Made by a program: the position numbers and the translations under genes
Shown: one piece after another, positions 44,279-63,792 of the stretch
Layout of the letters: each line of letters begins with the position of its first letter
Position numbering within the stretch: the first letter of the stretch is position 1
Notes under the pieces: generated by a model
Seen by the model: only the letters and a program-made list of their open reading frames with translations
Database searches by the model: none
What the model was told of the DNA's origin: nothing
Sequence record: LC788709.1
Strand: one strand, 5' to 3'
From: Escherichia coli phage Shin27
DNA: 64,000 bases

Positions 44279-44307
44279 ATTATATAAGATTTCTGGACAT
44301 TTAGCAA
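44279..44307 (-). promoter_or_regulatory. T5-type early promoter (TTGCTA-N17-TATAAT)
   Basis: minus-strand hexamers with 17-bp spacer and conserved AT-rich leader. Confidence 0.55.
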
Positions 44308-44312
44308 GTAAA

Positions 44313-44843
44313 TTATTTATTTAATTCTTCTAATGCTGGAAGCAACCCGCGAAAGACTTCCTTAACTGCTAGCTCTCCGTGAAGCTCTTCCCTTAGTATA
44401 TTAGCTGCTTCAACAGCTAAATTTAGATCTTGGTATCTAAAGTAGCCACCATGTACTGGAGTACTTTCAGAATTTCTGGCTTGGACTCTCCATTGCTGGA
44501 GATCTTTCTTCCAGCTAACCCCTAGATATCCAGAATTAGATTGTGCGACTTTATTACGATTATTTTCCTGAGATGTGGCATCCTTTAGATTACACCATCT
44601 GTTATCTTTTCTTATATTATTTAAGTGATGAACTAAACCTGGGATATAACCCTCCATATACAGGAAAGCTAATCTATGGGCTGCATATCTTTTTCTGTTT
44701 ATCCCGATAAATATATAACCATCTTTATCGGGACTGCCAGCGATAGCTCCAGCTTTAGCTCTACCCTTACTGACTTTCCTTATAAAGTCTCCTGTATCGG
44801 GATTATATTCAAATAGTTCTTTTAGTAGTTCTTGTGTTATCAT
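44313..44843 (-). CDS. HNH homing endonuclease (HNH_3/AP2-like)
   Basis: 176-aa ORF; motifs YAAHRLAF, HHLNNIRKDNRWCNL. Confidence 0.6.
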   Translation of the reverse strand: MITQELLKELFEYNPDTGDFIRKVSKGRAKAGAIAGSPDKDGYIFIGINRKRYAAHRLAFLYMEGYIPGLVHHLNNIRKDNRWCNLKDATSQENNRNKVAQSNSGYLGVSWKKDLQQWRVQARNSESTPVHGGYFRYQDLNLAVEAANILREELHGELAVKEVFRGLLPALEELNK

Positions 44844-45275
44844 TTACCAATCGTTAACGAAACCTGAGAACTCAGAAGCAAAGACTAACTCAAATTTCTC
44901 AGCAATTTCAGGATGATCTTTACAGATCAGTTCAATGCACTTCTCAGGTTCCATACCATCTTCTTCAGGATCACCGTAATACTTGTCCCAAAGATCATCA
45001 GGAATAACTTGCTCAGCTAGATCTTGGAAGTTCACTAACTGATAGCGTGGAGTATCCTCATTAATAAAGATCTCATGCAATTCCTCAGATACTTCTCCCT
45101 TATAATCGGAAATTAGCAGAGCATTGCAAGCAAAACATTCCCACATCATCAAACGCTCAGAAATCGGGTTCGATTTGTCTTGAACATAGGACTGAAAGAC
45201 TGCCTTAAAAGTAGCTTTAACTTGCTCAAACTTATCTGCTGTTGCGATTAAAAGTGCTTTATCAATCTTTTGCAT
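44844..45275 (-). CDS. hypothetical acidic protein
   Basis: 143-aa ORF downstream of a T5-type promoter. Confidence 0.45.
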   Translation of the reverse strand: MQKIDKALLIATADKFEQVKATFKAVFQSYVQDKSNPISERLMMWECFACNALLISDYKGEVSEELHEIFINEDTPRYQLVNFQDLAEQVIPDDLWDKYYGDPEEDGMEPEKCIELICKDHPEIAEKFELVFASEFSGFVNDW

Positions 45276-45305
45276 TTTGATTCCTTCTCATCAATTTATA
45301 AAGTA

Positions 45306-45334
45306 ATTATACAGAAAACTAAGCATTTTAGCAA
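45306..45334 (-). promoter_or_regulatory. T5-type early promoter (TTGCTA-N17-TATAAT)
   Basis: as above, upstream of 44844..45275. Confidence 0.55.
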
Positions 45335-45436
45335 ATGAAGTTTTAAAATAAAAGGCCTAAGCCTAGGCCCGTAAAGAAAGAGATAAGAACTACTATCCCT
45401 ATTGCTATAAATATCTCACGAGCCATGCCATCAAAA

Positions 45437-46027
45437 TCAAACATTGATATCTCCCCTCAATACCGCTGCCACATCTTCATCGATTTGGAGTATTTCACCA
45501 GTAGTGCAGTTAACCACTTTATCATAGCTTGTGAACTTGCCAGACACAATATCCTCTAGAGGAATAGGAGTCTTGCTCATCTCAAAAGAGACGTTGATAT
45601 AACGTGGGTCACGCACAGAATTGGTGTGCACATGTCCGTGAATGTTTAGCTTACCACGAAGTTCTGCTTCGTGCAATGGACAATGTGACAGCCAAAACTT
45701 CTTGCCACCACCTGTTTGCTTACCTAGAGCCTGAATATCATCATAAACGTCTACAAGATCTTTAATACGCAGACCCTGACGTTCAGCATCGTGGTTGCCC
45801 ATGATTAATTGGTTAGGCACATTGTAGATAACCGACTTCAATTTAGCCAACCCTTCACGCCCCACGGCAATATCTCCTAGCAATACAAGTTTTGTACGCT
45901 TGCCAATGTGCTTGGACAAAGTATCTAGGATATATTCATCGTGCTCTTTCCTGTTCTTAAACCACGGACGGAAGCGAAGAGTTCCAGGATGGTCTAGGTG
46001 CAAATCCGACCAGAATTTAACTTTCAT
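45437..46027 (-). CDS. calcineurin-like metallophosphoesterase
   Basis: 196-aa ORF with DLHLDH, GDIAVG, GNHD, GHVH motifs. Confidence 0.55.
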   Translation of the reverse strand: MKVKFWSDLHLDHPGTLRFRPWFKNRKEHDEYILDTLSKHIGKRTKLVLLGDIAVGREGLAKLKSVIYNVPNQLIMGNHDAERQGLRIKDLVDVYDDIQALGKQTGGGKKFWLSHCPLHEAELRGKLNIHGHVHTNSVRDPRYINVSFEMSKTPIPLEDIVSGKFTSYDKVVNCTTGEILQIDEDVAAVLRGDINV

Positions 46028-46233
46028 TACTTATTCCTTACACAAGTTGAGGTAATAGTATAACTATCGTAGAATATACCTTTTGTGAGTCCAATTTGGA
46101 TGCTGGAATTATCCAGCTTACCTCCAGCTACGTCACACAAGTGTCTAGTATCTTCTGCGGTGAATCTCATACTATTATCATAAGGATCACATCCAGCTAG
46201 TATTAGTACTGATACTAGTAGTAATCTCTTCAT
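46027..46233 (-). CDS. small lipoprotein
   Basis: 68-aa ORF with signal peptide and lipobox LAGC. Confidence 0.4.
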   Translation of the reverse strand: MKRLLLVSVLILAGCDPYDNSMRFTAEDTRHLCDVAGGKLDNSSIQIGLTKGIFYDSYTITSTCVRNK

Positions 46234-46601
46234 TACAGAACTTCCTCCGCATATTTATTCCAACCCTGACAATAACTACTAATACCACGAAGTTTGAATA
46301 TTTCATCATAAACCTCATGGTGCTCTTTTGCTTCTTGATATCCTTTGTCAAGTTCTTCTTGTCGTGCTTGCTCAAAATCAACACGATTCTCTAGCATTTT
46401 CCAGACTTTTTCATACTCTGGCCAGTCATGCTCTACCACAACGGTTTTGAGATCCTCTTTTCCACGTTGTGCTCGACTATACCACAGTTTGGATAAGATA
46501 TGTTCCAAAGTGGTAAAGTTGCTTTGAGTGATATGCCCTAATTCTAGGGCTTTCTCAATATCAGACAACTTTATAACTACATAACGTTCTTCACGTTCCA
46601 T
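46233..46601 (-). CDS. hypothetical protein
   Basis: 122-aa ORF. Confidence 0.4.
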   Translation of the reverse strand: MEREERYVVIKLSDIEKALELGHITQSNFTTLEHILSKLWYSRAQRGKEDLKTVVVEHDWPEYEKVWKMLENRVDFEQARQEELDKGYQEAKEHHEVYDEIFKLRGISSYCQGWNKYAEEVL

Positions 46602-47464
46602 TATAGAATCCTCTGTACACCACAGCTATCATTTTTATCTGTGGTAAATGTCAAGATCTTACCAGCTTCATCATTAACTTGCGCAACCGTCAACTGCCCG
46701 TTGAAAACACCGCCAGTATCGAGATAAACACGGTTCTTGTACAGAATTGGGTAAGGAACACCAGTGTGGCCATGGAATACGAAATCTACACTTTCAACTT
46801 CTGGCACTTCCACAGTCAGTTCATCTTTAAATCCTGCATAACGCTGGAAATAGGGGTGCTCTGCACCTTGCTTAGACAGATGAAAACCAATTTCCTGAAT
46901 TACATCACGATCCCATAGATATGGCTCAATGTAATAACTAGGATGATCATTAGGATCATTTTCACTTGCAGCGATATGATCAATAATATCATCCCAATTA
47001 GGTGTATGTACATCGAATCCCGCATCTTTATACTGGAATGGTATTCCACCATGAACAACACCATATTTCTTGCCACGATGGAGTACAGTCATGAATACTG
47101 GCATTTTAACTGCCATATCTTCTGCGATACCTTTAATTGTATCGGTATCTAGATCATTCATTGCCCACATTCCACCATTATACATCCAGTTGGCGTAGTC
47201 ACCAGCAATCATAAACTGATCATGGTTGCCACGAACGCTGCGGAAGCGTGGGTTATATAAGAATTTGGCTAGAACCTGTAAGTTCTGCGGGCCACGGTCA
47301 ATTAAGTCGCCAACACAGACAACATAGTCACGCTTCTCTTTATATCCTGCTAGTTTAAGAGCATCTTCCAGCATATCATTACAGCCGTGAATATCTCCTA
47401 CGAAGAACAGGTTAACATCGTCTGGTACTACTAACATTTCATGCAGGTTAAATTCTTTTTTCAT
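46601..47464 (-). CDS. Ser/Thr protein phosphatase (PPP family)
   Basis: 287-aa ORF with GDIHGC, GDLIDRG, GNHD motifs. Confidence 0.7.
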   Translation of the reverse strand: MKKEFNLHEMLVVPDDVNLFFVGDIHGCNDMLEDALKLAGYKEKRDYVVCVGDLIDRGPQNLQVLAKFLYNPRFRSVRGNHDQFMIAGDYANWMYNGGMWAMNDLDTDTIKGIAEDMAVKMPVFMTVLHRGKKYGVVHGGIPFQYKDAGFDVHTPNWDDIIDHIAASENDPNDHPSYYIEPYLWDRDVIQEIGFHLSKQGAEHPYFQRYAGFKDELTVEVPEVESVDFVFHGHTGVPYPILYKNRVYLDTGGVFNGQLTVAQVNDEAGKILTFTTDKNDSCGVQRIL

Positions 47465-47495
47465 TATCTGGTTCCTTTCTCAAGTTTATAGGTAT

Positions 47496-47524
47496 ATTAT
47501 ATCAAAATTTTAAGCGTTTAGCAA
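47496..47524 (-). promoter_or_regulatory. T5-type early promoter (TTGCTA-N17-TATAAT)
   Basis: immediately after terminator 47527-47557, upstream of phosphatase gene. Confidence 0.55.
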
Positions 47525-47526
47525 AT

Positions 47527-47557
47527 AAAGAAAAACCCAGATCAGCTAAGATCTGGG
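47527..47557 (-). terminator. rho-independent terminator
   Basis: hairpin CCCAGATC-AGCTAA-GATCTGGG followed by U-run on minus strand. Confidence 0.6.
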
Positions 47558-47566
47558 TTGGATTTA

Positions 47567-47857
47567 TTAATCTTCTGGATTATCTTCCAGGAAGTTTTTG
47601 ATTGCATCGTGCATAGTTTCCTTACGAAGCTGACGACCAATCAGAATGTGGTTGGCTTCCACACGACCATTCGGTAGACGATCTGCTAGAACTACTACAG
47701 GAACTTGTCTAACACCGAACTTCTGCATAAGTTCTGTATTATCAGTCTCTTTATGAACTTCTAGACTGTAGCCCTGTACTACTTTATCGAATACAGGCTC
47801 GAAAAGTTTACATGGGTTGCAAGTGGAACCTTTTAATAGATATATTAATTTACTCAT
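47567..47857 (-). CDS. thioredoxin/glutaredoxin-like protein
   Basis: 96-aa ORF with CNPC redox motif near N-terminus. Confidence 0.5.
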   Translation of the reverse strand: MSKLIYLLKGSTCNPCKLFEPVFDKVVQGYSLEVHKETDNTELMQKFGVRQVPVVVLADRLPNGRVEANHILIGRQLRKETMHDAIKNFLEDNPED

Positions 47858-48260
47858 GTTTATTAATGGCCTCCAAAAAGCCTTTCATTACCTTGACAGT
47901 TGCAGTGCTAAGATCTAAGGTAGCACCTAAGCACTCGGATACAGCAGCTTGATAAGGGGCTTTTAGCCTGCCTTCCGGTACTTGTACTTTCTTATAGGTT
48001 TTCTTCTTGACTTTATCCAGCATCGTTTCAAGAACATTGAGAGGCAACTTCTGACCTTCAATATTCACGCCAAGCTCTTCCATTAGCATGGTATTTAAGT
48101 CAATACGAGTAAGTTTCTTGCCCTTGCTAGACATACGAATTCCCGCCTTTTTCTCAAGTTTTGCACGCTCTGGTGAATCGAGGTCACGTAATGCGATGTT
48201 CAATTCATACGGAGCCATATTGTAATGGTTAGCCATCTGAGTATAGTAACGATCTGACAT
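47850..48260 (-). CDS. hypothetical protein
   Basis: 136-aa ORF. Confidence 0.4.
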   Translation of the reverse strand: MSDRYYTQMANHYNMAPYELNIALRDLDSPERAKLEKKAGIRMSSKGKKLTRIDLNTMLMEELGVNIEGQKLPLNVLETMLDKVKKKTYKKVQVPEGRLKAPYQAAVSECLGATLDLSTATVKVMKGFLEAINKHE

Positions 48261-48293
48261 TTGTGAAACTCCTCTGATTCAATTTATATAAAT

Positions 48294-48322
48294 ATTATAT
48301 AAAAATTTCAGCGGAAAGTCAA
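48294..48322 (-). promoter_or_regulatory. T5-type early promoter (TTGACT-N17-TATAAT)
   Basis: upstream of 47850..48260. Confidence 0.55.
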
Positions 48323-48335
48323 CTACTTTTTTATA

Positions 48336-48752
48336 TTAGTGTGCTTGATGTGGGAATCTCTTCCTAACTAAGTACATAGTTATTGGATATATTGAATACA
48401 TAAGTATAGGGGAGAAAAGGGTGAAATAAGCCGTGACTCCCCCAGCTAACATTAGTGGTATCAATGCTAGAGTAAGGGCCATAAGAATCATACCGAATGA
48501 GACAGCCAGGGCTACTGTGATGCAGTTCTCTAACTCCATCCAAAGCCAACAATATTTCGTATTCCTCTGGCAGTTGCATTTGCAAACGCCGAATGTGCCC
48601 ATAATTATATACTCTAGCCCATGAACGACTTTCTTTAATGTATCATTTTGGGTAACTAGTGCGACAACAGTGAGAATTATCATTAAGATGAAAATTACTA
48701 GGCTTATTTTCCATATTCCTAGTAATATCATGGTGAATAGTTCTGCAAACAT
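48336..48752 (-). CDS. multi-pass membrane protein (lysis-associated candidate)
   Basis: 138-aa ORF with 3-4 TM helices and a Cys cluster; adjacent to endolysin. Confidence 0.4.
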   Translation of the reverse strand: MFAELFTMILLGIWKISLVIFILMIILTVVALVTQNDTLKKVVHGLEYIIMGTFGVCKCNCQRNTKYCWLWMELENCITVALAVSFGMILMALTLALIPLMLAGGVTAYFTLFSPILMYSIYPITMYLVRKRFPHQAH

Positions 48753-48827
48753 GGCTTTCTCCTATCATTAAGTTTTTAAAGCCCCCTTTGCTTTAAAAGG
48801 CGGGAATTACCCCGCCTTGATTTATTA

Positions 48828-49241
48828 TCAGACTAATTCTACGTGACCACCGTCGTAAGTACCACGATCGATCTCATCATGATAATCACCAGAACTATTC
48901 CAGTCGGCACCAAAACGAAGTTTGACACCAAGTTCCTTACCGGCTTGTTCAAAAGCCTTCTTAACAGCCCAAAATGCTTCCAGATCTTTCCAATCAATCT
49001 TTCCATTAATATATGGTGCAAAATCGATAGCGTCTCCAGTTACATGCTTACTCTTGCTAGGGTCTTTCAAAAATGAAGTACCATTAGCAATGTTTTGGGC
49101 ACTTTGTGCTACTGTACGAATACCCTGTACGATTGTGAAATCATATGGAGATAATTCTAAAGCCCTACGAGCTACCTTTTGTAGCTCGGGCTTAACAGTT
49201 GCTAATTGTTTTTCGCTATTTTTACCAAATTTAAAACTCAT
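48828..49241 (-). CDS. lys: endolysin, M15-type peptidoglycan peptidase (T5 Lys-like)
   Basis: 137-aa ORF with VanY/M15-like HVTGDAIDF and DGGHVE motifs; size equals T5 endolysin as recalled. Confidence 0.7.
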   Translation of the reverse strand: MSFKFGKNSEKQLATVKPELQKVARRALELSPYDFTIVQGIRTVAQSAQNIANGTSFLKDPSKSKHVTGDAIDFAPYINGKIDWKDLEAFWAVKKAFEQAGKELGVKLRFGADWNSSGDYHDEIDRGTYDGGHVELV

Positions 49242-49894
49242 ATAGATCTACCTAATGATCTCCGTTGTGGGGAACAGAGCTTTGCTAAGTACTCATTAAA
49301 TTGTTCCGAATCAGCTGTATCTACGGGTTTATCCTTCCATGCAATACCTATGTATCCAGCATAGATATTATTTAGGTTGAAATATGGACAAGTGTAGACG
49401 TAATTAAAAGTAATGTTCTTAAATGCTGGTATATTTGACCCAGTATATTTATTTACTTTTACACTTAAATCCGCAGCGTAGTTAAAGCCTTCCAGGTGAC
49501 GTCTATAAAGTTCAGACGTCTTATTTACTGCTTTATCGGCCAAGTCAGCCCTATCCAATTGCGCATTGCTTTCCCATGCAATAATGTTTGAATAATCATT
49601 TATAGCATCTGGTTTATACTTTACTACAAAAACGGCATCCGCACCAGTCTGGGAGAAAAGAACCATACTCTTTTCTCGTGCTACATTAGGAAAGTTATCT
49701 ATCCTTTGGGTTTGAACATCCTGTAAAACCGAAGACGTGGAGAAAGTCTTTAAAAATGACATCACCTCGCTAGTGTTACTTACAAACAAGAAAATAATGA
49801 CAGCAACTAAGATAGTTAGCAGACGTTTTAGTAGTGAAGCTGGATCTTTCGCTTCTTGTAGCAGTATCGTTAATAGTTGTATAAACTTTTCCAC
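49238..49894 (-). CDS. membrane protein upstream of endolysin (holin candidate)
   Basis: 218-aa ORF with single N-terminal TM; translationally coupled to endolysin. Confidence 0.4.
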   Translation of the reverse strand: MEKFIQLLTILLQEAKDPASLLKRLLTILVAVIIFLFVSNTSEVMSFLKTFSTSSVLQDVQTQRIDNFPNVAREKSMVLFSQTGADAVFVVKYKPDAINDYSNIIAWESNAQLDRADLADKAVNKTSELYRRHLEGFNYAADLSVKVNKYTGSNIPAFKNITFNYVYTCPYFNLNNIYAGYIGIAWKDKPVDTADSEQFNEYLAKLCSPQRRSLGRSI

Positions 49895-49917
49895 TTGTAA
49901 CCTCCTCTAACCACTAC

Positions 49918-49946
49918 CATTATACTAATTCTAGAGTAAAATTACA
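49918..49946 (-). promoter_or_regulatory. sigma70-type promoter (TTGTAA-N17-TATAAT) upstream of lysis cassette
   Basis: upstream of 49238..49894. Confidence 0.45.
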
Positions 49947-50007
49947 ATGTGTTTTTTAAGATCACTTCTGGAGCACAATTTTTTGTCGTTGTCAAGAAGA
50001 ATTTTAG

Positions 50008-50041
50008 GCAAAAGAAAAGCCAGAGTCGTTAAACTCTGGCT
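50008..50041 (-). terminator. rho-independent terminator after ClpP-like gene
   Basis: hairpin GCCAGAG-TCGTTAAAC-TCTGGC followed by U-run on minus strand. Confidence 0.55.
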
Positions 50042-50050
50042 TAAAACTAC

Positions 50051-50650
50051 TTACACTTCTCCATGTTCTTCTGGATGCGGGGCTTGAGCTTTACTACACT
50101 GCTCTTTACGATAATTCGCCAAAATTTCAATACGCTTATTGATTTCTTTGCTGTTGAGATAGATATTCTTATTCTCTTTTACCATATCCTCGATTTCGTC
50201 GACAGAGAAGAACGGAAAGTAAATATCTAGCATCATATCTTCTACAAACTGGTTGTAGGATTCATAGGCTTTCTTGATTTCTTGACCTTTCTCGCAGAAT
50301 CCGCCAGAGAACGTATGTCCCATAAGCGTAGCATGTGGATGTACAACCCAACCGTGGCAAGACAGGAAGATTGTGCAGTAAGCAGAAGCACTAGGACCGA
50401 GCAGGTGTCCAATAACAGTTCCACGACAGTTAGCGATTAGGTTAGATAGTTGTGCAGCAGTATCAACGTAACCACCCGGCCCATTAATCATCAGATTAAT
50501 TTCATCATCTTCACCAGCCTGCATCAGTATCATGGATAGGTCACGATACTCATCCGGTGAGCCTAATTCTTCATCAAAGAAAAAGGTATATTCGTTAGAT
50601 TGGCGAACAGTGTGAAACAGGTTAGTCTTTTCTTCTTTCTTATTAGTCAT
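50051..50650 (-). CDS. ClpP-like serine protease
   Basis: 199-aa ORF; INGPGG, GPSASAY, LMGHTFSGG segments resemble the ClpP core. Confidence 0.55.
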   Translation of the reverse strand: MTNKKEEKTNLFHTVRQSNEYTFFFDEELGSPDEYRDLSMILMQAGEDDEINLMINGPGGYVDTAAQLSNLIANCRGTVIGHLLGPSASAYCTIFLSCHGWVVHPHATLMGHTFSGGFCEKGQEIKKAYESYNQFVEDMMLDIYFPFFSVDEIEDMVKENKNIYLNSKEINKRIEILANYRKEQCSKAQAPHPEEHGEV

Positions 50651-50662
50651 AGTGATCCTTAA

Positions 50663-56896: not shown

Positions 56897-56902
56897 ATAA
56901 TT

Positions 56903-56978
56903 TGGTACTCCGACTTGGGATCGAACCAAGATTTGACGATTATCGGTCGCCTGTTCTAACCGTTTGAACTATCGGAGC
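56903..56978 (-). tRNA. tRNA-Ile(GAT): tRNA-Ile (GAT) candidate
   Basis: hand fold: acceptor GCTCCGA/TCGGAGT, T-loop TTCGATC, anticodon loop CCGATAA (C at position 33), CCA encoded. Confidence 0.5.
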
Positions 56979-56979
56979 A

Positions 56980-57273: not shown

Positions 57274-57303
57274 TTGGTTTCCCTCTCATTAATTTATGTA
57301 AAT

Positions 57304-57332
57304 ATTATAACAAGAAATAAGAGAGAAGGCAA
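57304..57332 (-). promoter_or_regulatory. T5-type early promoter (TTGCCT-N17-TATAAT)
   Basis: upstream of 56980..57273 and the first tRNAs. Confidence 0.5.
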
Positions 57333-57347
57333 ATGAATTTTTAAATT

Positions 57348-57422
57348 TGGTGCTCCCACCAGGAATCGAACCCGGTTCAGATGCTTACAAGGCAACTGCA
57401 TCGCCAGCAATGCTTTAGGAGC
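57348..57422 (-). tRNA. tRNA-Thr(TGT): tRNA-Thr (TGT)
   Basis: hand fold: acceptor GCTCCTA/TGGGAGC, D-stem GCAT/ATGC, anticodon loop CTTGTAA, T-loop TTCGATT. Confidence 0.6.
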
Positions 57423-57589
57423 AATAAACCCGTTATTTCAACGGAATTTCTTTTTCAAATACAGGAGACTTATCAGACATTACTGTCATAGCCAACTGCT
57501 GTAGAAATTCGAATGAGAGTTTTAAACGTTCTTCACCCAACTCAACCTCAACACACTTCATTTGCTTATCAACCTTTAGCTTTAGATTA

Positions 57590-57811
57590 TCAGCCCTCTT
57601 CGGGTTCTCTTTGCTCAGCTATTGCTAGCCAGTCTGGTAAAAGAAACTTAGTACGAAATTCTTCATATGTTTCTTCTGGATGAAAGCTATAGCCTTGCTT
57701 TTCATCATTTAATAAAACCGAACCGTCTTCCTGTTCATAAGCTCGGTATGTTTCACCAATAATTAAAACTCGTCTATTGGGGTTTTTATTACGAAACTCA
57801 AAAACGTCCAT
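57590..57811 (-). CDS. hypothetical protein
   Basis: 73-aa ORF. Confidence 0.35.
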   Translation of the reverse strand: MDVFEFRNKNPNRRVLIIGETYRAYEQEDGSVLLNDEKQGYSFHPEETYEEFRTKFLLPDWLAIAEQREPEEG

Positions 57812-57826
57812 AACGTTTCCTTAAGT

Positions 57827-57901
57827 TGGTGCGGGATACGAGAGTCGAACTCGTGTCTACTGGTTGGAAGCCAGTTATTCTAGCCACTGAACTAATCACG
57901 C
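57827..57901 (-). tRNA. tRNA-Gly(TCC): tRNA-Gly (TCC)
   Basis: hand fold: anticodon arm ACTGG-CTTCCAA-CCAGT, T-loop TTCGACT, CCA encoded; one acceptor mismatch. Confidence 0.6.
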
Positions 57902-57907
57902 ATAAAT

Positions 57908-57983
57908 TGGCTGGAGAAGGAGGAATCGAACCTACCATTAACGGAGTCAAAGGCCGTTGTGCTAACCGTTACACTACTCTCCA
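57908..57983 (-). tRNA. tRNA-Gln(TTG): tRNA-Gln (TTG)
   Basis: hand fold: U1-A72 acceptor, anticodon loop CTTTGAC, T-loop TTCGATT. Confidence 0.6.
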
Positions 57984-57989
57984 AGTATT

Positions 57990-58065
57990 TGGCTGGGATG
58001 CCACGGATCGAACGTGGAACCTTCGGAGTCAGAGGCCGACGATCTGCCAATTGATCTACATCCCA
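57990..58065 (-). tRNA. tRNA-Gln(CTG): tRNA-Gln (CTG)
   Basis: hand fold: U1-A72 acceptor TGGGATG/CATCCCA, D-stem GATC/GATC, anticodon loop CTCTGAC. Confidence 0.6.
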
Positions 58066-58072
58066 ATAATTT

Positions 58073-58273
58073 TTATTCTACAGGAACCGTGGCAATTGGA
58101 TCTGGTTCTTCTAGACGTTTACCATTATGGTCAACACGAATAATACCACAACCTTCACAGATTACAACAGCACCATAGCCTTCTTTAACTTCGGCTTCTG
58201 TAATCAGACCAGAAAGATCACCAGTATCTTTGCCCCACATATCGATAGAGCATTCTTTGCAGAAATCAGCCAT
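58073..58273 (-). CDS. Cys-rich zinc-ribbon-like small protein
   Basis: 66-aa ORF with CKEC and CEGC pairs. Confidence 0.35.
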   Translation of the reverse strand: MADFCKECSIDMWGKDTGDLSGLITEAEVKEGYGAVVICEGCGIIRVDHNGKRLEEPDPIATVPVE

Positions 58274-58287
58274 ATTTTAGTTCCTGT

Positions 58288-58362
58288 ATAAGTTAATTGG
58301 TGCATCCTCAGGGAATCGAACCCCGATCGTAAAGTTCGTAGCTTTACATTCTTTCCGTTGAA
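58288..58362 (-). tRNA. tRNA-Arg(ACG): tRNA-Arg (ACG)
   Basis: hand fold: anticodon arm TAAAG-CTACGAA-CTTTA, T-loop TTCGATT, CCA encoded. Confidence 0.65.
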
Positions 58363-58367
58363 ATAAG

Positions 58368-58444
58368 GACGCATATTTGGGGTGGCTAGTGGAATTCGAA
58401 TCCACATAGGCCTGATTCACAATCAGGATCATTAACCAATTATG
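58368..58444 (-). tRNA. tRNA-His(GTG): tRNA-His (GTG)
   Basis: hand fold: acceptor GTGGCTA/TAGCCAC, discriminator C, anticodon arm CCTGA-TTGTGAA-TCAGG. Confidence 0.65.
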
Positions 58445-58699
58445 ATATAGCCACAATTGAATACTATTAGGGGATGATCAGTCCTCCATTTGGCCGTCTA
58501 AGGTACCAAAGTTAGTCATTCTGCGCACAGGTTTTTCTCCTGATTCTTTATTGCGAATGCTCTCTAATAATACTCAATTGTGGCGGCTCTCCGAAACTCT
58601 TCTACTCTAGCCTTAGCAGCTTACTCCCGAACGCATGTCGGGAAAGTCTTACTAAGAACATCAAATAGCACCGTTACACTTTGAGCCATTAATGTATCA

Positions 58700-58835
58700 A
58701 GAAGCAGAAGGACTTGAACCTTCACGAGATAGACCATTTATCTCAGCCTCGTTTTCGGGTATCTTATGAGGAGTGGATGTTCCCCTTACGCCCTTTAGGA
58801 AGCCCCGTCTACCGATTCCGGCATACTTCAAGATT
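58700..58835 (-). ncRNA. tRNA-like element of atypical length (no canonical cloverleaf found)
   Basis: contains GGTTCAAGTCC T-arm and GAATCGGTAGA D-loop-like motifs but ~130 nt and no pairing acceptor stem by hand. Confidence 0.25.
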
Positions 58836-58925
58836 TGGCAGAAGATAATGGAGTCGAACCATCACCGTATCACTACAGCGGGCCGGTTTTCAAGACCGGT
58901 TACGTACCACTACGTCCTATCTTCT
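58836..58925 (-). tRNA. tRNA-Ser(TGA): tRNA-Ser (TGA), class II
   Basis: hand fold: perfect acceptor AGAAGAT/ATCTTCT, anticodon arm CCGGT-CTTGAAA-ACCGG, long variable arm, CCA encoded. Confidence 0.7.
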
Positions 58926-59152
58926 AGTATTTGTTCTACTTCTTTTCGAAGATCTTCTGGATTATCATGATAGGTTGTTTGCCATACATAAATAACTCCA
59001 GTATCACATGCTTTATCAAATATTTCTCGCTCAGGAAGTTTCATGCCCATTGCGTACTTGATATGAAACTCTAAAGCTTGCTTACTAGGGAATGTATGAC
59101 GCAAGAAAAACTTATCATTAACTAAATCCAACATCATAATCTTGACTTTCAT
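58910..59152 (-). CDS. hypothetical protein
   Basis: 80-aa ORF; 3' end overlaps tRNA-Ser by ~16 nt. Confidence 0.35.
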   Translation of the reverse strand: MKVKIMMLDLVNDKFFLRHTFPSKQALEFHIKYAMGMKLPEREIFDKACDTGVIYVWQTTYHDNPEDLRKEVEQILEDRT

Positions 59153-59173
59153 TTATATTCCCTATTAGTTGTT

Positions 59174-59266
59174 TGGCGGAAGAAGAGAGATTCGAACTCT
59201 CAAGCCTGCTTTAACAAGTCAGCCACTTTCCAAGCGGTTTTCGTCACCTAATCGATTTGCTCTTCC
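59174..59266 (-). tRNA. tRNA-Ser(GGA): tRNA-Ser (GGA) candidate, class II
   Basis: hand fold: acceptor GGAAGAG/TTCTTCC, anticodon loop TTGGAAA, long variable arm, T-loop TTCGAAT. Confidence 0.55.
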
Positions 59267-59440
59267 GTAGATCTCAGGATTAAATCATAAACTTCATTAG
59301 CAGATACTGGAAGTATGAGATTATACATCTTTTGGTCATACCTCTGACCATACTCTATAAACACATACTCTTTAGTTAATGTATTAACAGCTAACCAGAT
59401 ATCAGTTATAGGAGTTTTCATCATGAGTTAATCCAATGTT

Positions 59441-59521
59441 TGGTAGGGATGGAGGGACTCGAACCCACACCCGAAGACTAGAACCTAAATCTAGCGCGTC
59501 TGCCAATTTCGCCACATCCCC
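59441..59521 (-). tRNA. tRNA-Leu(TAG): tRNA-Leu (TAG)
   Basis: hand fold: acceptor GGGGATG/CATCCCT, D-loop AAATTGGCAGA, anticodon arm CTAGA-TTTAGGT-TCTAG, extended variable region. Confidence 0.6.
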
Positions 59522-59528
59522 ATTTTAT

Positions 59529-59747
59529 TTAGTTAGAAATAAATAGTAACCCTGCAACAATGGAACCTATGCCACTGAATACCATTATCAGCATAGCTTC
59601 TAAGCTGATAAAGCGGACGTTATATGGAGCGCCCCAAGAATAATCAGTAAAGAAAGTTTTCTTTTCTTTAGCTAAATCTTTAATAGTTCTAAAATAGATA
59701 GCTAGTGCTAAAGCTACAAGAACTACAGAGGCTGCTAAGAATACCAT
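59529..59747 (-). CDS. small membrane protein
   Basis: 72-aa ORF with two TM helices. Confidence 0.35.
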   Translation of the reverse strand: MVFLAASVVLVALALAIYFRTIKDLAKEKKTFFTDYSWGAPYNVRFISLEAMLIMVFSGIGSIVAGLLFISN

Positions 59748-59766
59748 ATTATTTCCTTAATTTGTT

Positions 59767-59842
59767 TGGTGGAGTCACTCAGAATTGAACTGAGTTCCAC
59801 TGCTTGCAAGGCAGTAAGTTTAACCAAATAACCTATGACCCC
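59767..59842 (-). tRNA. tRNA-Ala(TGC): tRNA-Ala (TGC)
   Basis: hand fold: G3-U70 in acceptor, anticodon arm ACTGC-CTTGCAA-GCAGT. Confidence 0.65.
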
Positions 59843-59847
59843 GAATT

Positions 59848-59926
59848 TGGTGGAGAATAAGAGATTCGAACTCTTCTGATATCCTCGGTGCAAGCGAGGT
59901 GTCCACTCCAAGCAGACCCATTCCCC
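59848..59926 (-). tRNA. tRNA-Ala(TGC): second tRNA with TGC anticodon (Ala-like, 7-nt variable loop)
   Basis: hand fold: acceptor GGGGAAT/ATTCTCC with G3-U70, anticodon arm CCTCG-CTTGCAC-CGAGG, T-loop TTCGAAT. Confidence 0.5.
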
Positions 59927-59929
59927 AAA

Positions 59930-60165
59930 ATCTTTAAGTTTACTAAGGCTATTAGCTCGGTGTGCGTATTACCCTCAGACATTAGCCAGTAGAGGATAAC
60001 CGCTCTTCACAAACCCGATACACTATTCAGTTGCCGCTGAATCTAGTGGACTAATCTAGAACTTATTGCAAAGTATCCCCCGCCATTAAGGGTCTACTTG
60101 CAATTGTGCTTTTTGGCAGCCAGTCCTAGGTCGAGCTAATACCTTAGTGAACTTTGATGAGGATT
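59930..60165 (-). ncRNA. ORF-free ~235-nt segment in tRNA array (candidate stable small RNA)
   Basis: no ORF >= 60 aa on either strand, lies downstream of promoter 60189-60217 and upstream of tRNAs. Confidence 0.2.
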
Positions 60166-60188
60166 TCTCCTCATCAATTTATATAAAT

Positions 60189-60217
60189 ATTATAACAAGA
60201 AATTAAGCATCAAGCAA
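60189..60217 (-). promoter_or_regulatory. T5-type early promoter (TTGCTT-N17-TATAAT)
   Basis: upstream of the ORF-free segment and tRNAs 59767-59926. Confidence 0.55.
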
Positions 60218-60569
60218 GTACATTTTTAGCGATTTCTTGTATTTCCTTAACGTCACTAACGAAAAGGTAATCAGAGCTTCCAGAGTGCATACTCTGCATA
60301 ACCACACCATCCTCTGGTGCATCTTCTTTCAAAGTAATACCTAACCAGAACTCGGCAAAACTAGGTGTTACCTCACCTTGACTTGCCTTGAATACATCGG
60401 CTTCTGTGATCTCCTGACCAGTAGAGAGTCCCATGTACGGTACGTTCAGATCAATATCTTTGTAAAACTCAGCTAGATCTTGTTCGAAGTCCCAACCTTT
60501 AGAGATAGCGAACTCCATTGTTACATGACCGAAATAGCCTTGAACCTTGCTTGATAATTGCATTTGCAA
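60210..60569 (-). CDS. hypothetical acidic protein
   Basis: 119-aa ORF. Confidence 0.4.
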   Translation of the reverse strand: MQMQLSSKVQGYFGHVTMEFAISKGWDFEQDLAEFYKDIDLNVPYMGLSTGQEITEADVFKASQGEVTPSFAEFWLGITLKEDAPEDGVVMQSMHSGSSDYLFVSDVKEIQEIAKNVLA

Positions 60570-60588
60570 TTCCTTATTTTGAGTTAAT

Positions 60589-60662
60589 TGGTACTCGGTG
60601 ATAGAATCGAACTATCGCAACCGCCGTGTAAAGACGGGGTTCTCCCATTAAACTAACCGAGC
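60589..60662 (-). tRNA. tRNA-Val(TAC): tRNA-Val (TAC)
   Basis: hand fold: anticodon arm CCGTC-TTTACAC-GGCGG, T-arm GATAG-TTCGATT-CTATC. Confidence 0.65.
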
Positions 60663-60666
60663 AATT

Positions 60667-60744
60667 TGGTGGATTGCCTGGGATTCGAACCCAGAACTGA
60701 CGGATTAAAGGTCCGCTACTCTTATCCGGTTGAGCTAGCAATCC
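60667..60744 (-). tRNA. tRNA-Lys(TTT): tRNA-Lys (TTT)
   Basis: hand fold: perfect acceptor GGATTGC/GCAATCC, anticodon loop CCTTTAA (C at position 33), T-loop TTCGAAT. Confidence 0.6.
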
Positions 60745-61208
60745 AATTTTTCTACTAATAATTTAAAAGCATCTAGTACAGGTACTTCAAACCATTCCCC
60801 GGATACTCTGTAGTCTTTGAGAAGATTATGTAACTCTTTCTCCGTACGTCTTTTATCTGACGAAAATCTGAAATGGTGTAGCTTGTAGTCTCTATTAGGT
60901 GAATAGGTTTGATAACTTGCTAACCTCTCATTTACATCTATAGTCATACCTATTTTATACATGCCTGGCCATGCGGGATTACCGATTACATATACAAAAC
61001 CTTCCGTTATAGGTATTTTATGTTCTCTTTTGTATTTTAAGAGATTTAAAGCTGCCATTCGATAACAGAATTTAAATTCTGAAGTTTTTAACTTACCCTC
61101 TTTACCAGAAATTTCATTATATTTGCTCATATAAGCTCTTATAAGCTTATCATCTATAATAAAATTATCAGGAAGGTTTAAGGCAGCTAAAACTTTATTA
61201 ATTAGCAT
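60735..61208 (-). CDS. T5orf172 / GIY-YIG-like domain protein
   Basis: 157-aa ORF; GFVYVIGNP...GMYKIGMT segment resembles T5orf172-type domain. Confidence 0.4.
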   Translation of the reverse strand: MLINKVLAALNLPDNFIIDDKLIRAYMSKYNEISGKEGKLKTSEFKFCYRMAALNLLKYKREHKIPITEGFVYVIGNPAWPGMYKIGMTIDVNERLASYQTYSPNRDYKLHHFRFSSDKRRTEKELHNLLKDYRVSGEWFEVPVLDAFKLLVEKLDC

Positions 61209-61383
61209 AAACTTCCTTAATAGAGTAGACTTTCAAGTAAGGATGATTAATACCAAATTCCGCCATTACTTCATTTTCATCTTTACCATAATGGGCTAGT
61301 GGATACTTCTTACGATCTTTACTAGAACGTAAATCACTTACTTTTAAACGAAATAATTTCATTTCGAAATCCTTCTATTAAAT

Positions 61384-61461
61384 TGGAAGCGGGTGCAGGA
61401 ATCGAACCTACCTCTTTCTAGCTTATGAGACTAGCGATCTCTACCAGAGATCTAACCCGCA
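61384..61461 (-). tRNA. tRNA-Met(CAT): tRNA with CAT anticodon and unpaired 1:72 position (initiator-like feature)
   Basis: hand fold: D-stem GATC/GATC, anticodon arm CTAGT-CTCATAA-GCTAG, T-loop TTCGATT, CCA encoded. Confidence 0.5.
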
Positions 61462-61467
61462 ATTGTT

Positions 61468-61545
61468 TGGTCTCCGTGGGAGGATTTGAACCCCCGACCC
61501 TATCGCCCCAAACGAAACGCTCTGGCCAAACTGAGCTACACGGAG
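61468..61545 (-). tRNA. tRNA-Pro(TGG): tRNA-Pro (TGG)
   Basis: hand fold: perfect acceptor CTCCGTG/CACGGAG, D-arm GCTC/GAGC, anticodon loop TTTGGGG, T-loop TTCAAAT. Confidence 0.65.
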
Positions 61546-61577
61546 AATATTCTTTGTTAACTCACTTTATAAAATAT

Positions 61578-61606
61578 ATTATACAGAGAATTAAGCTAAA
61601 TAGCAA
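61578..61606 (-). promoter_or_regulatory. T5-type early promoter (TTGCTA-N17-TATAAT)
   Basis: upstream of tRNA-Pro and the CAT tRNA. Confidence 0.55.
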
Positions 61607-61624
61607 CTACATTTTTTAATAAAT

Positions 61625-61855
61625 TTACTTATTGCGTAGGCCACCTGGAGGGTTCAAGCCCCACGGCTGACAAAGAAGTTTGCGAGACTTCTCTTAAACG
61701 CCAGAATAGACCCGCCGATCTATCGGAACCTACTCAATAAGTAAACTTTCGTTTACCTACACCTACCTGGTCGGGAGGATTTTCAGCGACTAGAACCGGC
61801 CGGAAACTCATCGCCTTGTTTATCTAGGAGTCCGTTCTCTAGGAAGCAGAAACCT
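61625..61855 (-). ncRNA. ORF-free ~230-nt segment in tRNA array (candidate stable small RNA)
   Basis: no ORF, between tRNA-Gly(GCC) and promoter 61578-61606. Confidence 0.2.
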
Positions 61856-61860
61856 AAATT

Positions 61861-61934
61861 TGGTGCGGTCGGAGGGAATCGAACCCTCAACTTCTGGTTG
61901 GCAACCAAAAATTATACCTTTTAACTACGAACGC
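61861..61934 (-). tRNA. tRNA-Gly(GCC): tRNA-Gly (GCC)
   Basis: hand fold: anticodon arm TTTGG-TTGCCAA-CCAGA, T-loop TTCGATT, CCA encoded. Confidence 0.6.
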
Positions 61935-61944
61935 ATAATAAGTC

Positions 61945-62060
61945 AATCTAGGCAGGACTTGAACCTGCTATCACTTGTGCGGATTTACGAGAACCATTCT
62001 TTCACTCGAATCGAACGAGCTTCTACCCTCGGCAAGCTGGTGTCCCCTCTCCACCACGCT
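61945..62060 (-). ncRNA. tRNA-like fragments (possible tRNA pseudogene or atypical RNA)
   Basis: two T-arm-like motifs (GCAGG-TTCAAGT-CCTGC and GCTCG-TTCGATT-CGAG) without a complete cloverleaf by hand. Confidence 0.2.
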
Positions 62061-62147
62061 AGAATGATAATTAGTGCCTGCTCCTTTGAATCAAGAAGTC
62101 CACCCCGGACTTTGGGTCTTTGCAGTACATCACGCTGCTCTGATGTT

Positions 62148-62224
62148 TGGTACACCCACTAGGACTTGAACCTAGAACCTACCGCTTAAGAGGCGGTAGC
62201 TCTAACCAATTGAGCTATGGATGT
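62148..62224 (-). tRNA. tRNA-Lys(CTT): tRNA-Lys (CTT)
   Basis: hand fold: D-arm GCTC-AATTGGTTA-GAGC, anticodon arm ACCGC-CTCTTAA-GCGGT, T-arm CTAGG-TTCAAGT-CCTAG. Confidence 0.6.
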
Positions 62225-62230
62225 ATAATT

Positions 62231-62305
62231 TGGCGGTACTAAGGGTAATCGAAACCCTACCTCTCCCGTGACAGGGGAGTATCCTAACCGTTAGACTATA
62301 GTACC
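62231..62305 (-). tRNA. tRNA-Asp(GTC): tRNA-Asp (GTC)
   Basis: hand fold: perfect acceptor GGTACTA/TAGTACC, anticodon arm CTCCC-CTGTCAC-GGGAG. Confidence 0.65.
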
Positions 62306-62877
62306 TTTAACTTTTTAAGTTCTTTAGGATTGCCTCCTAAAGAAGTGTATCTTTTACGCAACCCATTATCTGAATAACTTAACTTTCTCCCTGCACCTGA
62401 CCAGCCTAGCTCTCTTACTGTAACCTCGATTATTTCTTTAGTTATAGAGATATCTTTTGGTTTATGTGAAGAGCACTCCTGACATTTTTCAGCTTTTAAA
62501 GAAATAGCTTTACCACAATCCTTACAACAATTATCATGGTTTAGTTTACTAAATCCTTTATCTTTTAAAGTCTTTTCTAGATGCTGCTCTTTTGTGAGCA
62601 CTTGTAAGTTATTAAGACCCCAATAAGTAATGTCTGTGTTAATATGGTCAACTTCTAGTTCAGAGTCTAGACTTGGTAATTTCTTAAATGCACATGCTAA
62701 AATCCTATGTACACCGGTATTTCTCTGTTGACCATTTTTATGGAGACGTATAGATAAGTATCCGTAATTACTGGTTATTTGGGTTAGTATTTTGTTTGAT
62801 TTGATACTAAATACTAACCCATCCAAACTTACTAAGTACTCCTCAAACCCTGGAATGGGTAAGGATATTCCGTGCAT
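62296..62877 (-). CDS. HNH homing endonuclease
   Basis: 193-aa ORF; NUMOD4-like N-terminus, HNH core VDHINTD...NNLQVLTKEQH; abuts tRNA-Asp. Confidence 0.6.
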   Translation of the reverse strand: MHGISLPIPGFEEYLVSLDGLVFSIKSNKILTQITSNYGYLSIRLHKNGQQRNTGVHRILACAFKKLPSLDSELEVDHINTDITYWGLNNLQVLTKEQHLEKTLKDKGFSKLNHDNCCKDCGKAISLKAEKCQECSSHKPKDISITKEIIEVTVRELGWSGAGRKLSYSDNGLRKRYTSLGGNPKELKKLKVL

Positions 62878-62880
62878 AAT

Positions 62881-63066
62881 TTACTCAGTTTTGAGTTTTT
62901 CGATAGCTTCCTCAACCTCTTTTAGAGCTTCACGACGCTCTACTTGACCTTGAAGTTCTTCAAGAAGTTCAGCTTTCAGAGCCTTAATAATATTACCACG
63001 AACCTTAATATTATTAATCAGATTATCACGATCAGCTTCTAGTCGAGCAATTGCACGAGTTGTCAT
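62881..63066 (-). CDS. small coiled-coil protein
   Basis: 61-aa ORF. Confidence 0.3.
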   Translation of the reverse strand: MTTRAIARLEADRDNLINNIKVRGNIIKALKAELLEELQGQVERREALKEVEEAIEKLKTE

Positions 63067-63169
63067 ATCTATTTCCTCAGTTGTTAATGAAAAATGGTAT
63101 CTGTGACTGAATTCGATATCAGCAATGATAGCTGGTTGGCTACCGGTTTACTTAACTCTACACAGAATA

Positions 63170-63252
63170 TGGCGGGCCGTGTAGGATTCGAACCTACGTT
63201 GTCTTTCGACATGGATTAACAGTCCACCGCCAAACCGCTTGGCTAACGACCC
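63170..63252 (-). tRNA. tRNA-Asn(GTT): class II-like tRNA (Tyr-type architecture) with GTT (Asn) anticodon
   Basis: hand fold: 3-bp D-stem GCC/GGC, anticodon arm GTGGA-CTGTTAA-TCCAT, 13-nt variable arm, T-arm GTAGG-TTCGAAT-CCTAC, discriminator G. Confidence 0.5.
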
Positions 63253-63259
63253 TAAAATT

Positions 63260-63335
63260 TGGACGACCGCATGAGATTCGAACTCACATAAGGAGGTTTT
63301 GCAGGCCTCCGCCTAAGCCATTCAGCCAACGGTCG
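63260..63335 (-). tRNA. tRNA-Cys(GCA): tRNA-Cys (GCA)
   Basis: hand fold: anticodon loop CTGCAAA, T-loop TTCGAAT, CCA encoded. Confidence 0.55.
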
Positions 63336-63513
63336 ATTTATCTTGCTTTTCGAGATTAGTAAACTCTAGATCTTTAGAATGTCCTATAGATCTAGCATAA
63401 TAGCCATCTCCAGCATCGTAGCCTGATTTACCGCACTCACACATCTTAAACTCTCTATAATGAGTGAAAATATGTTCAGAACCACAACACTTAAATTTAA
63501 CTAACATTTTCAT
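63322..63513 (-). CDS. Cys-rich zinc-ribbon-like small protein
   Basis: 63-aa ORF with CCGSEH and CECG motifs. Confidence 0.35.
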   Translation of the reverse strand: MKMLVKFKCCGSEHIFTHYREFKMCECGKSGYDAGDGYYARSIGHSKDLEFTNLEKQDKSTVG

Positions 63514-63752
63514 TTAACACGCTCCGGTAAATCTTCGAGTTTATATTGAGTAGCCACATTAGCAGCATCTAGTAACAAACCCATATGTTTAAGAATCCTA
63601 GTGATAGCCTCGCCTTCTGCTTCTTCTACAAAAGTGCGTAGTTGAATGAAGTCAATACCCCCATCCATACCAGAGAAAATGTTTAGTAAGCGAAGCATTA
63701 CCAGCTTACGTTCTTTCAATTCTTGTTCTGTCATGTTGCTTCTCCAGTTCAA
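63510..63752 (-). CDS. hypothetical protein
   Basis: 80-aa ORF directly downstream of a T5-type promoter. Confidence 0.4.
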   Translation of the reverse strand: MNWRSNMTEQELKERKLVMLRLLNIFSGMDGGIDFIQLRTFVEEAEGEAITRILKHMGLLLDAANVATQYKLEDLPERVK

Positions 63753-63763
63753 TTTATGTAATA

Positions 63764-63792
63764 ATTATACAGAACTTTAAGCGGTTAAGCAA
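63764..63792 (-). promoter_or_regulatory. T5-type early promoter (TTGCTT-N17-TATAAT)
   Basis: upstream of 63510..63752. Confidence 0.55.

Follow-up and report, generated by a model that had tools for sequence, protein, structure and literature searches.

The stretch analyzed here comprises 64,000 nucleotides of Escherichia coli phage Shin27 (LC788709.1; hereafter the window), and its subject is a family of promoters, each with a conserved AT-rich leader, that recurs on the minus strand between positions 44279 and 63792. The window derives from a T5-like phage. Positions 44000-64000 are 99.6% identical, across 99% of their length, to Escherichia coli phage Wa28, which is classified in Demerecviridae, Markadamsvirinae, Epseptimavirus, and they match 670 phage records in all, the majority of them from phages of Salmonella, Escherichia and Klebsiella. 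A RefSeq-annotated relative supplies the following layout of the window:

Up to ~26 kb: late genes, including terminase and the receptor-binding tail protein
Just after the late genes, ~26 kb, plus strand: a small lipoprotein gene
~27-36.6 kb: pre-early genes, with homologues of A1 and A2
~37 kb to the end of the window: leftward early region

Across the region, the Wa28 record contains minus-strand genes only plus 21 tRNAs, which we confirmed, and annotates no promoters at all. Positions 44279-63792 form a chain of units, each built as terminator, promoter, leader and genes, and the units headed by the promoter copies contain protein genes, tRNAs or a stable RNA. Ten canonical copies were found in this interval, all ten on the minus strand, and each is named here by the first base of its -35 hexamer (63792, 61606, 60217, 57332, 54984, 52863, 48322, 47524, 45334 and 44307). 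We regard these copies, very probably, as the sigma-70-dependent early-class promoters of a T5-like phage, each heading one leftward early unit. They are listed below as cassettes on the minus strand, with their positional orthologues in the two T5 reference records, AY587007 (GenBank) and NC_005859:

63741..63807, minus strand: -35 TTGCTT at 63787-63792, -10 TATAAT at 63764-63769, +1 at 63757, start codon at 63734 (+24); T5P18 in AY587007, P14b in NC_005859
61555..61621, minus strand: -35 TTGCTA at 61601-61606, -10 at 61578-61583; T5P17 in AY587007, P13a in NC_005859
60166..60232, minus strand: -35 TTGCTT at 60212-60217, -10 at 60189-60194, +1 at 60182; "repeat b copy 3" only in AY587007, P13b in NC_005859
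57281..57347, minus strand: -35 TTGCCT at 57327-57332, -10 at 57304-57309 with TG (TGtTATAAT), +1 at 57297, start codon at 57273 (+25); T5P16 in AY587007, P11 in NC_005859
54933..54999, minus strand: -35 TTGCTA at 54979-54984, -10 at 54956-54961 with TG, +1 at 54949, start codon at 54925 (+25); T5P14 in AY587007, an unnamed "promoter" in NC_005859
52812..52878, minus strand: -35 TTGCTC at 52858-52863, -10 at 52835-52840, +1 at 52828 (ATAGATTGA), start codon at 52803 (+26); T5P13 in AY587007, an unnamed "promoter" in NC_005859
48271..48337, minus strand: -35 TTGACT at 48317-48322, -10 at 48294-48299, +1 at 48287, start codon at 48260 (+28); T5P11 in AY587007, an unnamed "promoter" in NC_005859
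47473..47539, minus strand: -35 TTGCTA at 47519-47524, -10 at 47496-47501 with TG, +1 at 47489 (ATAAACTTGA), start codon at 47464 (+26); T5P10 in AY587007, an unnamed "promoter" in NC_005859
45283..45349, minus strand: -35 TTGCTA at 45329-45334, -10 at 45306-45311, +1 at 45299, start codon at 45275 (+25); T5P9 in AY587007, P-F 30 in NC_005859
44256..44322, minus strand: -35 TTGCTA at 44302-44307, -10 at 44279-44284, +1 at 44272, start codon at 44246 (+27); T5P8 in AY587007, an unnamed "promoter" in NC_005859

The preliminary description of this DNA had proposed a family of at least 12 near-identical early promoters here, and the existence of the family is confirmed by counts far above chance. 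The core pattern TTGCTW-N17-TATAAT, allowing one mismatch, has 11 matches in the window against 2.09 expected from dinucleotide-preserving shuffles, none of 100 shuffles reaching 11, and TATAAT-N6-ATAAATTRATGAG, allowing three mismatches, has eight against 0.09 expected. Positions 44279 and 63792 coincide precisely with the outer bases of the first and last copies, and all copies lie inside the early region, strictly co-oriented with its genes. Twelve copies are reached in the window as a whole, once two sites outside the interval are added (see below), but not in the interval itself, which has the ten canonical copies and, as an eleventh site, one atypical promoter that lacks the downstream element; relaxed matrices, with the upstream and downstream halves scanned separately, yielded no additional copies between 44279 and 63792. 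A minus-strand site at 32740 was rejected as an extra copy, having a good -35 and no -10. Nor are the copies near-identical: over -50 to +17 their pairwise identity averages 60% (48-72%), compared with 26% for random pairs of window segments. The identity is concentrated at the -35 hexamer, the -10 hexamer and positions +1 to +9.

Anatomy of the promoter cassettes

Each cassette spans ~75 bp, and all share a single fixed register. Upstream of the -35, in the so-called -43 region, lies an A-rich block of high information content (consensus AAAAAT at about -47 to -41), in the position of an UP element. The -35 hexamer at -35 to -30 is typically TTGCTW, with TTGACT, TTGCCT and TTGCTC in single copies; the spacer measures 17 bp in every canonical copy and is semi-conserved, with GCTTAA followed by a T-rich 3' part; and the -10 hexamer at -12 to -7 is TATAAT in all ten, preceded by TG in four. 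Six AT-rich bases, the discriminator, then separate the -10 from a box, ATAAATT(G/A)A (hereafter ATAAATTRA), at the predicted +1 to +9. Nine copies have 6 bp between -10 and box and a single copy has 7 bp, and eight of the ten copies match the box with at most one mismatch at an offset of 6. The two others are 61606, in which a one-base insertion (TATAAAGTGAG) moves the match to an offset of 7, and 47524, which has ATAAACTTGA. The promoter design given in the preliminary description (TTGCTW or a close variant, 17 bp, TATAAT and a downstream element) is therefore present in all ten canonical copies, the downstream box varying in two.

A purine-rich Shine-Dalgarno sequence (GAGAGG-like) follows at +10 to +17, with GAGG or GGAG in all coding copies, and in the eight protein-coding copies of the interval the start codon falls at +24 to +28, in agreement with annotated gene starts. 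The +1 positions were assigned by homology to the T5 early promoter PN25. Positions -12 to +2 of PN25 are given as TATAATAGATTCAT (Klimuk et al., 2020, PMC7472727), so that +1 falls on the first A of ATAAATT.

The units downstream are of several kinds. Copy 52863 heads a unit containing dnk and a ClpP-like gene, 47524 is followed by a Ser/Thr phosphatase gene, and the first gene behind 44307 encodes a DUF7179 protein. Copy 61606 drives tRNA-Pro and tRNA-Met directly, without a Shine-Dalgarno sequence, and 60217 keeps the box ATAAATTGATGAGGAG although no open reading frame lies downstream.

Rho-independent terminator hairpins stand directly upstream of three canonical copies and of an atypical lysis promoter described in the last section. 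The clearest are at 47534-47559, directly before the 47524 cassette, at 45353-45370, upstream of 45334, and at 50017-50042, also upstream of a promoter. The first of these is a perfect 10-bp hairpin that scored as a terminator on both strands; its minus-strand T-tail lies where the 47524 promoter would otherwise have its upstream A/T block, the same bases being shared by both elements.

Relation to the early promoters of T5 and its relatives

The promoter family is already known, being annotated in both T5 reference records. AY587007 contains 70-bp "putative early promoter" features of the same design, T5P6 to T5P38, throughout the early region. By position, all ten window copies pair one-to-one with T5 sites, nine of which carry this annotation in AY587007 (T5P8-T5P11, T5P13, T5P14 and T5P16-T5P18). 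Scanned over T5 positions 1-100,000, a matrix built solely from the window copies recovered 33 sites. None lies outside 13-76 kb, and each points in the direction of early transcription, which runs on the minus strand as far as 54 kb and on the plus strand from 55 kb onward. Among the 33 is the classic PN25 (63133, plus strand, annotated T5P33, 51.5 bits). The downstream pattern was also run over T5 100-112.5 kb, part of the late region, and matched a single site there, the llp promoter, annotated "putative early promoter T5P41."

The resemblance to strong T5 early promoters, which had initially been put forward, is thus upheld by positional orthologues for every copy and by the recovery of PN25. 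Window and T5 promoters agree to the base in their architecture (A-tract, TTGCTW, 17 bp, TATAAT, AT-rich discriminator, ATAAATTRA, GAGAGG), and also in genomic positions, orientation and downstream genes. Differences lie in bases of the spacer, the discriminator and the far leader; certain downstream genes have been replaced, and T5 has an extra gene after P10. Homology blocks between the window and T5 have roughly 75-90% nucleotide identity, as a comparison of Epseptimavirus with Tequintavirus.

T5 early promoters were cloned and sequenced in the 1980s; PN25, P25, P26 and P28 were reportedly among those treated by Gentz and Bujard in 1985. PN25 became the basis of pQE-type expression vectors, and it is a standard tool and a model promoter for studies of escape. 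As a known T5 early-promoter family in an Epseptimavirus genome, the window copies are of low discovery value, and what is added is a precise transcription-unit map for such a genome, whose own record annotates no promoters.

Two plus-strand sites outside the interval also carry the design, one in full and one in part:

25961..26033, plus strand: full family copy, -35 TTGCTT at 25976-25981, -10 at 25999-26004, +1 at 26011 (ATAAATTAAACAGAGG), start codon at 26034; counterpart T5P41 in T5
33084..33135, plus strand: partial copy in the divergent promoter region of the pre-early genes, -10 TATAAT at 33108-33113, box ATAAATTAATGAG from 33120

The first precedes the llp-like gene, for which the same design on the plus strand had been claimed at the outset; the claim is correct, and the promoter at 25976-26004 scored 63 bits with a matrix not trained on that site. 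The gene itself (26034-26300, plus strand) encodes a Cor-family superinfection-exclusion lipoprotein (PHROG 1119, E = 1e-23) and adjoins the receptor-binding protein gene among the late genes, a placement like that of T5 llp. According to the title of Decker et al. (1994), as cited in PMC9586334, T5 llp is "expressed early during infection." The partial copy (33108-33135) has a poor -35 (TAGCCA, with an 18-bp spacer) and is followed by a leader of ~210 nt before the next gene; it is without a counterpart in T5. The surrounding intergenic segment between the divergent pre-early operons (32700-33300) also contains three DnaA-box-like TTATCCAC(A/T) motifs, near 32915, 33195 and 33245.

Beyond T5, the cassette including ATAAATT(G/A)ATGAGAGG was found in the early regions of three distant relatives, members of Demerecviridae with hosts in other bacterial families:

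Klebsiella phage Boggle_ER46, Dnk 46% identical to that of the window: ~12-17 sites, 12 of them within two mismatches of the box
Providencia phage PSTCR5 (Priunavirus), Dnk 35% identical: nine pattern matches against 0.34 expected, most with the box
Vibrio phage VPG01 (Ermolyevavirinae), Dnk 29% identical: seven pattern matches against 0.22 expected, most with the box

An exact scan of IMG/VR for TTGCT-N18-TATAAT-N6-ATAAATTRA returned at least 120 stretches. Among the matches listed, most are on contigs of 104-128 kb, as expected of T5-like genomes, and a few on contigs of other sizes (e.g., 187,821 and 136,132 bp). A limited literature search found no account of family-wide conservation of the box, which is a modest extension of known facts.

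Role of the transcription start region

Between the ten window-T5 orthologue pairs, the substituted fraction is 0.00 for the -10 hexamer and 0.08 for both the -35 hexamer and positions +1 to +9, compared with 0.20 for +10 to +17 (the Shine-Dalgarno region), 0.22 for the discriminator, 0.26 for the spacer and 0.33 for +18 to +26. The box is also kept where nothing is translated, namely before tRNA-Pro (61606), before a stable RNA (60217) and in several T5 copies before tRNAs. Conversely, it is absent from the late promoter at 9213-9241 (the T5P39 orthologue) and from the lysis promoter at 49947, despite equally short Shine-Dalgarno leaders, and is therefore no general requirement for translation. 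It is absent from the pre-early promoters as well, which have TTGACA-type -35 and different -10 hexamers. Because the box is fixed to the -10, is retained before tRNAs and non-coding RNA, and is missing from late promoters with short leaders, the evidence points to a role of this best-conserved part of the leader in transcription initiation rather than in translation.

Searches for an RNA element in the leader gave negative results. In the nine coding leaders, no significant RNA structure was detected over +1 to +45 (-0.5 to -5.6 kcal/mol, z from -1.6 to +1.7). Rfam at gathering thresholds returned tRNAs only, and a search of 58400-62200 at E up to 1 returned nothing credible, so that a structured or curated RNA element was rejected on the basis of both folding and Rfam. 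A leader independent of the promoter was rejected likewise: the box alone, allowing three mismatches, has three extra matches without a promoter against 2.0 expected, i.e., chance level. Accordingly, a shared element for processing or translation control, as suggested for the leader, is upheld only in the trivial sense that the leader carries a Shine-Dalgarno sequence; its coding copies are unstructured and belong to no Rfam family.

We propose that the start region, i.e., the discriminator together with +1 to +9, is specific to the early class and would act on both the DNA and the nascent transcript. It would provide fast escape from a very tightly bound promoter and probably also offer phage factors, gpT5.026 for instance, a handle for down-regulating the early class, while the rest of the leader is an ordinary unstructured ribosome-binding site. 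Our preferred reading takes the box for an initial transcribed sequence, one that favors escape from the promoter and sets the early class apart. When PN25 positions +3 to +20 were replaced (Kammerer et al., 1986, as described in PMC12464699), full-length RNA was ~tenfold lower and the escape half-time rose from 3 to ~45 min. The window box belongs to the same sequence class as the native PN25 start ATAAATTTGAGAGAGGAG of the work on initial transcribed sequence control in PN25 (Kammerer et al., 1986, and the Hsu laboratory), both being rich in A+T, with purines prevailing on the non-template strand. On this analogy, the start site and escape effect of PN25 and the gpT5.026 effect would carry over from T5 to each copy.

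The second part of this proposal concerns gpT5.026. When the early and late promoters of T5 were aligned, the main difference was in the discriminator, the early ones having ATATT; gpT5.026 binds the beta subunit of RNA polymerase, upon which polymerase binding to -5/+2 falls eightfold to tenfold; and in a T5.026 mutant early transcripts go up and late ones down (Klimuk et al., 2020, PMC7472727). The window encodes an orthologue with 90% amino-acid identity to the T5 protein (41990-42448, minus strand). AY587007 "ORF026" was considered for gpT5.026 and discarded, since the RefSeq locus tag T5.026 corresponds to AY587007 ORF024. Neither a strong terminator nor another family promoter was found between the 44307 promoter and this orthologue, which, judging by this arrangement, is probably expressed from the family promoter at 44307. 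It is a candidate trans-acting partner of the early discriminator and start region.

Several considerations weigh against reading the copies and their start region in this way. Early-period activity of the copies in Shin27 is a prediction, and their +1 positions come from homology to PN25. The literal ATATT of Klimuk et al., counted from the last -10 bases, is present in six of the ten copies and in the llp-like copy, all discriminators being AT-rich, and the effect of gpT5.026 on transcription in vitro is small, twofold or less (PMC7472727). The escape effect in PN25 comes from one T5 promoter and from wholesale replacement of +3 to +20, not from the ATAAATTGA box alone. Finally, a functional target in the first nine nucleotides of the RNA would predict the high conservation of +1 to +9 just as well; sequence analysis by itself does not tell the DNA level from the RNA level.

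A tentative alternative, on balance doubtful, overlaps with the preferred explanation rather than excluding it. Here the box would be mainly a class-specific tag, and a phage factor, either polymerase-bound gpT5.026 or a DNA-binding protein, would read the discriminator and +1 to +9 and shut the class off at the early-to-late switch, with escape being secondary. The box is confined to the early class in the window and in T5, it is conserved across genera in which Dnk is only 29-46% identical to that of the window, and a T5.026 homologue is present in the Klebsiella phage as well. Several copies also have a 10-12 bp AT palindrome (ATTTATATAAAT or ATTTATAAAT) centered near +1, although such palindromes easily arise by chance in AT-rich sequence, and we know of no sequence-specific binder of the box. 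The weakened binding to -5/+2 and the shift from late to early RNA in the mutant are in line with a tag, whereas gpT5.026 binds the beta subunit away from DNA, is weak in vitro, and leaves the mutant phage still able to switch classes (PMC7472727). More specifically, the ATAAATTGA box and the AT-rich discriminator could form a family-wide "temporal tag," shared by phages of Escherichia and Salmonella with those of Klebsiella, Providencia and Vibrio and read by a conserved polymerase-bound phage factor, of the gpT5.026 family or another, that switches off the whole early class. We consider this version rather unlikely; if true, it would provide the mechanism that the early-to-late switch of T5 still lacks. 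As the box is as constrained as the -35 and specific to the early class, the timing of gene classes in T5 becomes approachable by simple box swaps.

It has also been proposed for T4-type phages that promoter-early stem-loop (PeSL) motifs are recombination linkers (Arbiol et al., 2010, PMC2839356; Comeau et al., 2014, PMC4122927), and the cassettes of the window, often a terminator hairpin plus promoter, might similarly act in shuffling, deleting and inserting gene modules. This would be an evolutionary addition to promoter function, not an alternative to it, and we judge it improbable. Both systems consist of many dispersed composites of hairpin and early promoter flanking small variable early genes, and in the window, too, synteny breaks tend toward cassette edges: of the 36 ends of window-T5 homology blocks, eight lie no more than 15 bp from a cassette, where random placement predicts 2.2 (P ~0.001). 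A gene replacement relative to T5 follows the 54984 cassette, and its break coincides with the start codon. Directly upstream of the 44307 cassette, at a synteny break with T5, lies a homing-endonuclease-type HNH gene (44313-44843, minus strand; Pfam HNH_3, E = 5e-11; PHROG 99, E = 1e-58). Three canonical cassettes and the atypical lysis promoter have a terminator hairpin right beside them, and in AY587007 the dispersed repeats a, b and c are annotated over portions of the T5 cassettes. Against a null model of gene and tRNA boundaries, however, the excess of block ends is marginal (P = 0.06). The linker role is built on these homology-block ends and on one genome pair, and the copies, only ~60% identical, share short exact stretches. 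Compared with the PeSL cassettes, moreover, the sequences and the phage families are unrelated, and only some window copies have an adjoining hairpin.

Action of the leader at the RNA level, its shared 5' end AUAAAUUGAUGAGAGG being the target of a translational repressor, a nuclease or a ribosome-recruiting interaction, appears quite improbable. The box does lie wholly inside a 5' untranslated region of 23-27 nt, in which all coding copies carry their GAGG or GGAG; the open, AU-rich leaders fit what S1- and 30S-dependent initiation would need to be efficient; and the stable RNA behind 60217, which needs no translation, buries its Shine-Dalgarno-like sequence in a perfect 10-bp hairpin. T4 RegA operators and RegB cleavage at GGAG in early Shine-Dalgarno sites offer parallels for a shared early leader, the likeness being a short sequence common to the translation-initiation regions of many early messages. 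The window box, by comparison, is locked to the promoter, its distance to the -10 being fixed while that to the start codon varies, and it also stands before tRNA genes; no RegA- or RegB-like factor is known from T5-like phages, and no search aimed at one was made. The lower substitution of +1 to +9 than of the Shine-Dalgarno region, the translation of late genes from equally short leaders without the box, the chance-level frequency of promoter-less copies and the lack of conserved structure or an Rfam match all speak against the RNA level too and are compatible with the preferred role in initiation.

That AT-rich intergenic DNA of low complexity gave rise to the pattern by chance has next to no probability: the window is ~60% A+T and a generic sigma-70 consensus scan found it no richer than shuffled sequence (53 sites vs. 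53.6), but chance is refuted for the extended specific motif by the shuffle statistics, the T5 matrix scan and the orthology with T5, together with the strict co-orientation with genes and the recurrence of the motif in distant genera and in IMG/VR.

The lysis promoter and the stable RNAs

The operon of the holin and endolysin genes has a promoter of its own type:

49919..49947, minus strand: atypical promoter, TTGTAA-17-TATAAT followed by GGTAGTGGTTAGAGGAGG, without the ATAAATT box; orthologue T5P12 in AY587007, an unnamed "promoter" in NC_005859

This promoter is not a member of the family. The same TTGTAA-type design stands before the holin gene in the Klebsiella phage (position 21487 of locus L006) and in the Vibrio phage (position 19962 of locus L008), and the recurrence of so odd a design before holin suggests that the lysis genes may form a separate timing class.

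The remaining features are non-coding segments among the tRNAs:

59927..60182, minus strand: non-coding transcript segment of 256 nt between the 60217 promoter and tRNA-Ala
58455-58835, 61607-61860, 61935-62147 and 59178-59266, minus strand: gene-free gaps among the tRNAs

The first segment folds at -93.8 kcal/mol (z = -6.5 to -7.2), with the leader of the 60217 transcript locked in a perfect 10-bp 5' hairpin (TTGATGAGGA-GAAA-TCCTCATCAA) and a closing helix of ~25 bp coming next. No Rfam family covers the segment, which is conserved in more than 400 phage records. We rejected it as a new non-coding RNA because it is the orthologue of an RNA already annotated in T5 (NC_005859), "RNA2H, stable RNA with unknown functions."

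No unusual structure was found in the gaps 58455-58835, 61607-61860 and 61935-62147 (z from -1.8 to +0.9). In T5, the first two have counterparts among the stable or tRNA-like RNAs, namely RNA1/RNAI/RNAIII and RNAIV/RNA2. T-arm-like GGTTCAAGTCC motifs are present in these gaps. Also among the tRNAs is a second open reading frame similar in size to the HNH gene (62296-62877, minus strand). The segment 59178-59266 has a weak match to tRNA-Sec (23.8 bits) and resembles a degenerate tRNA.

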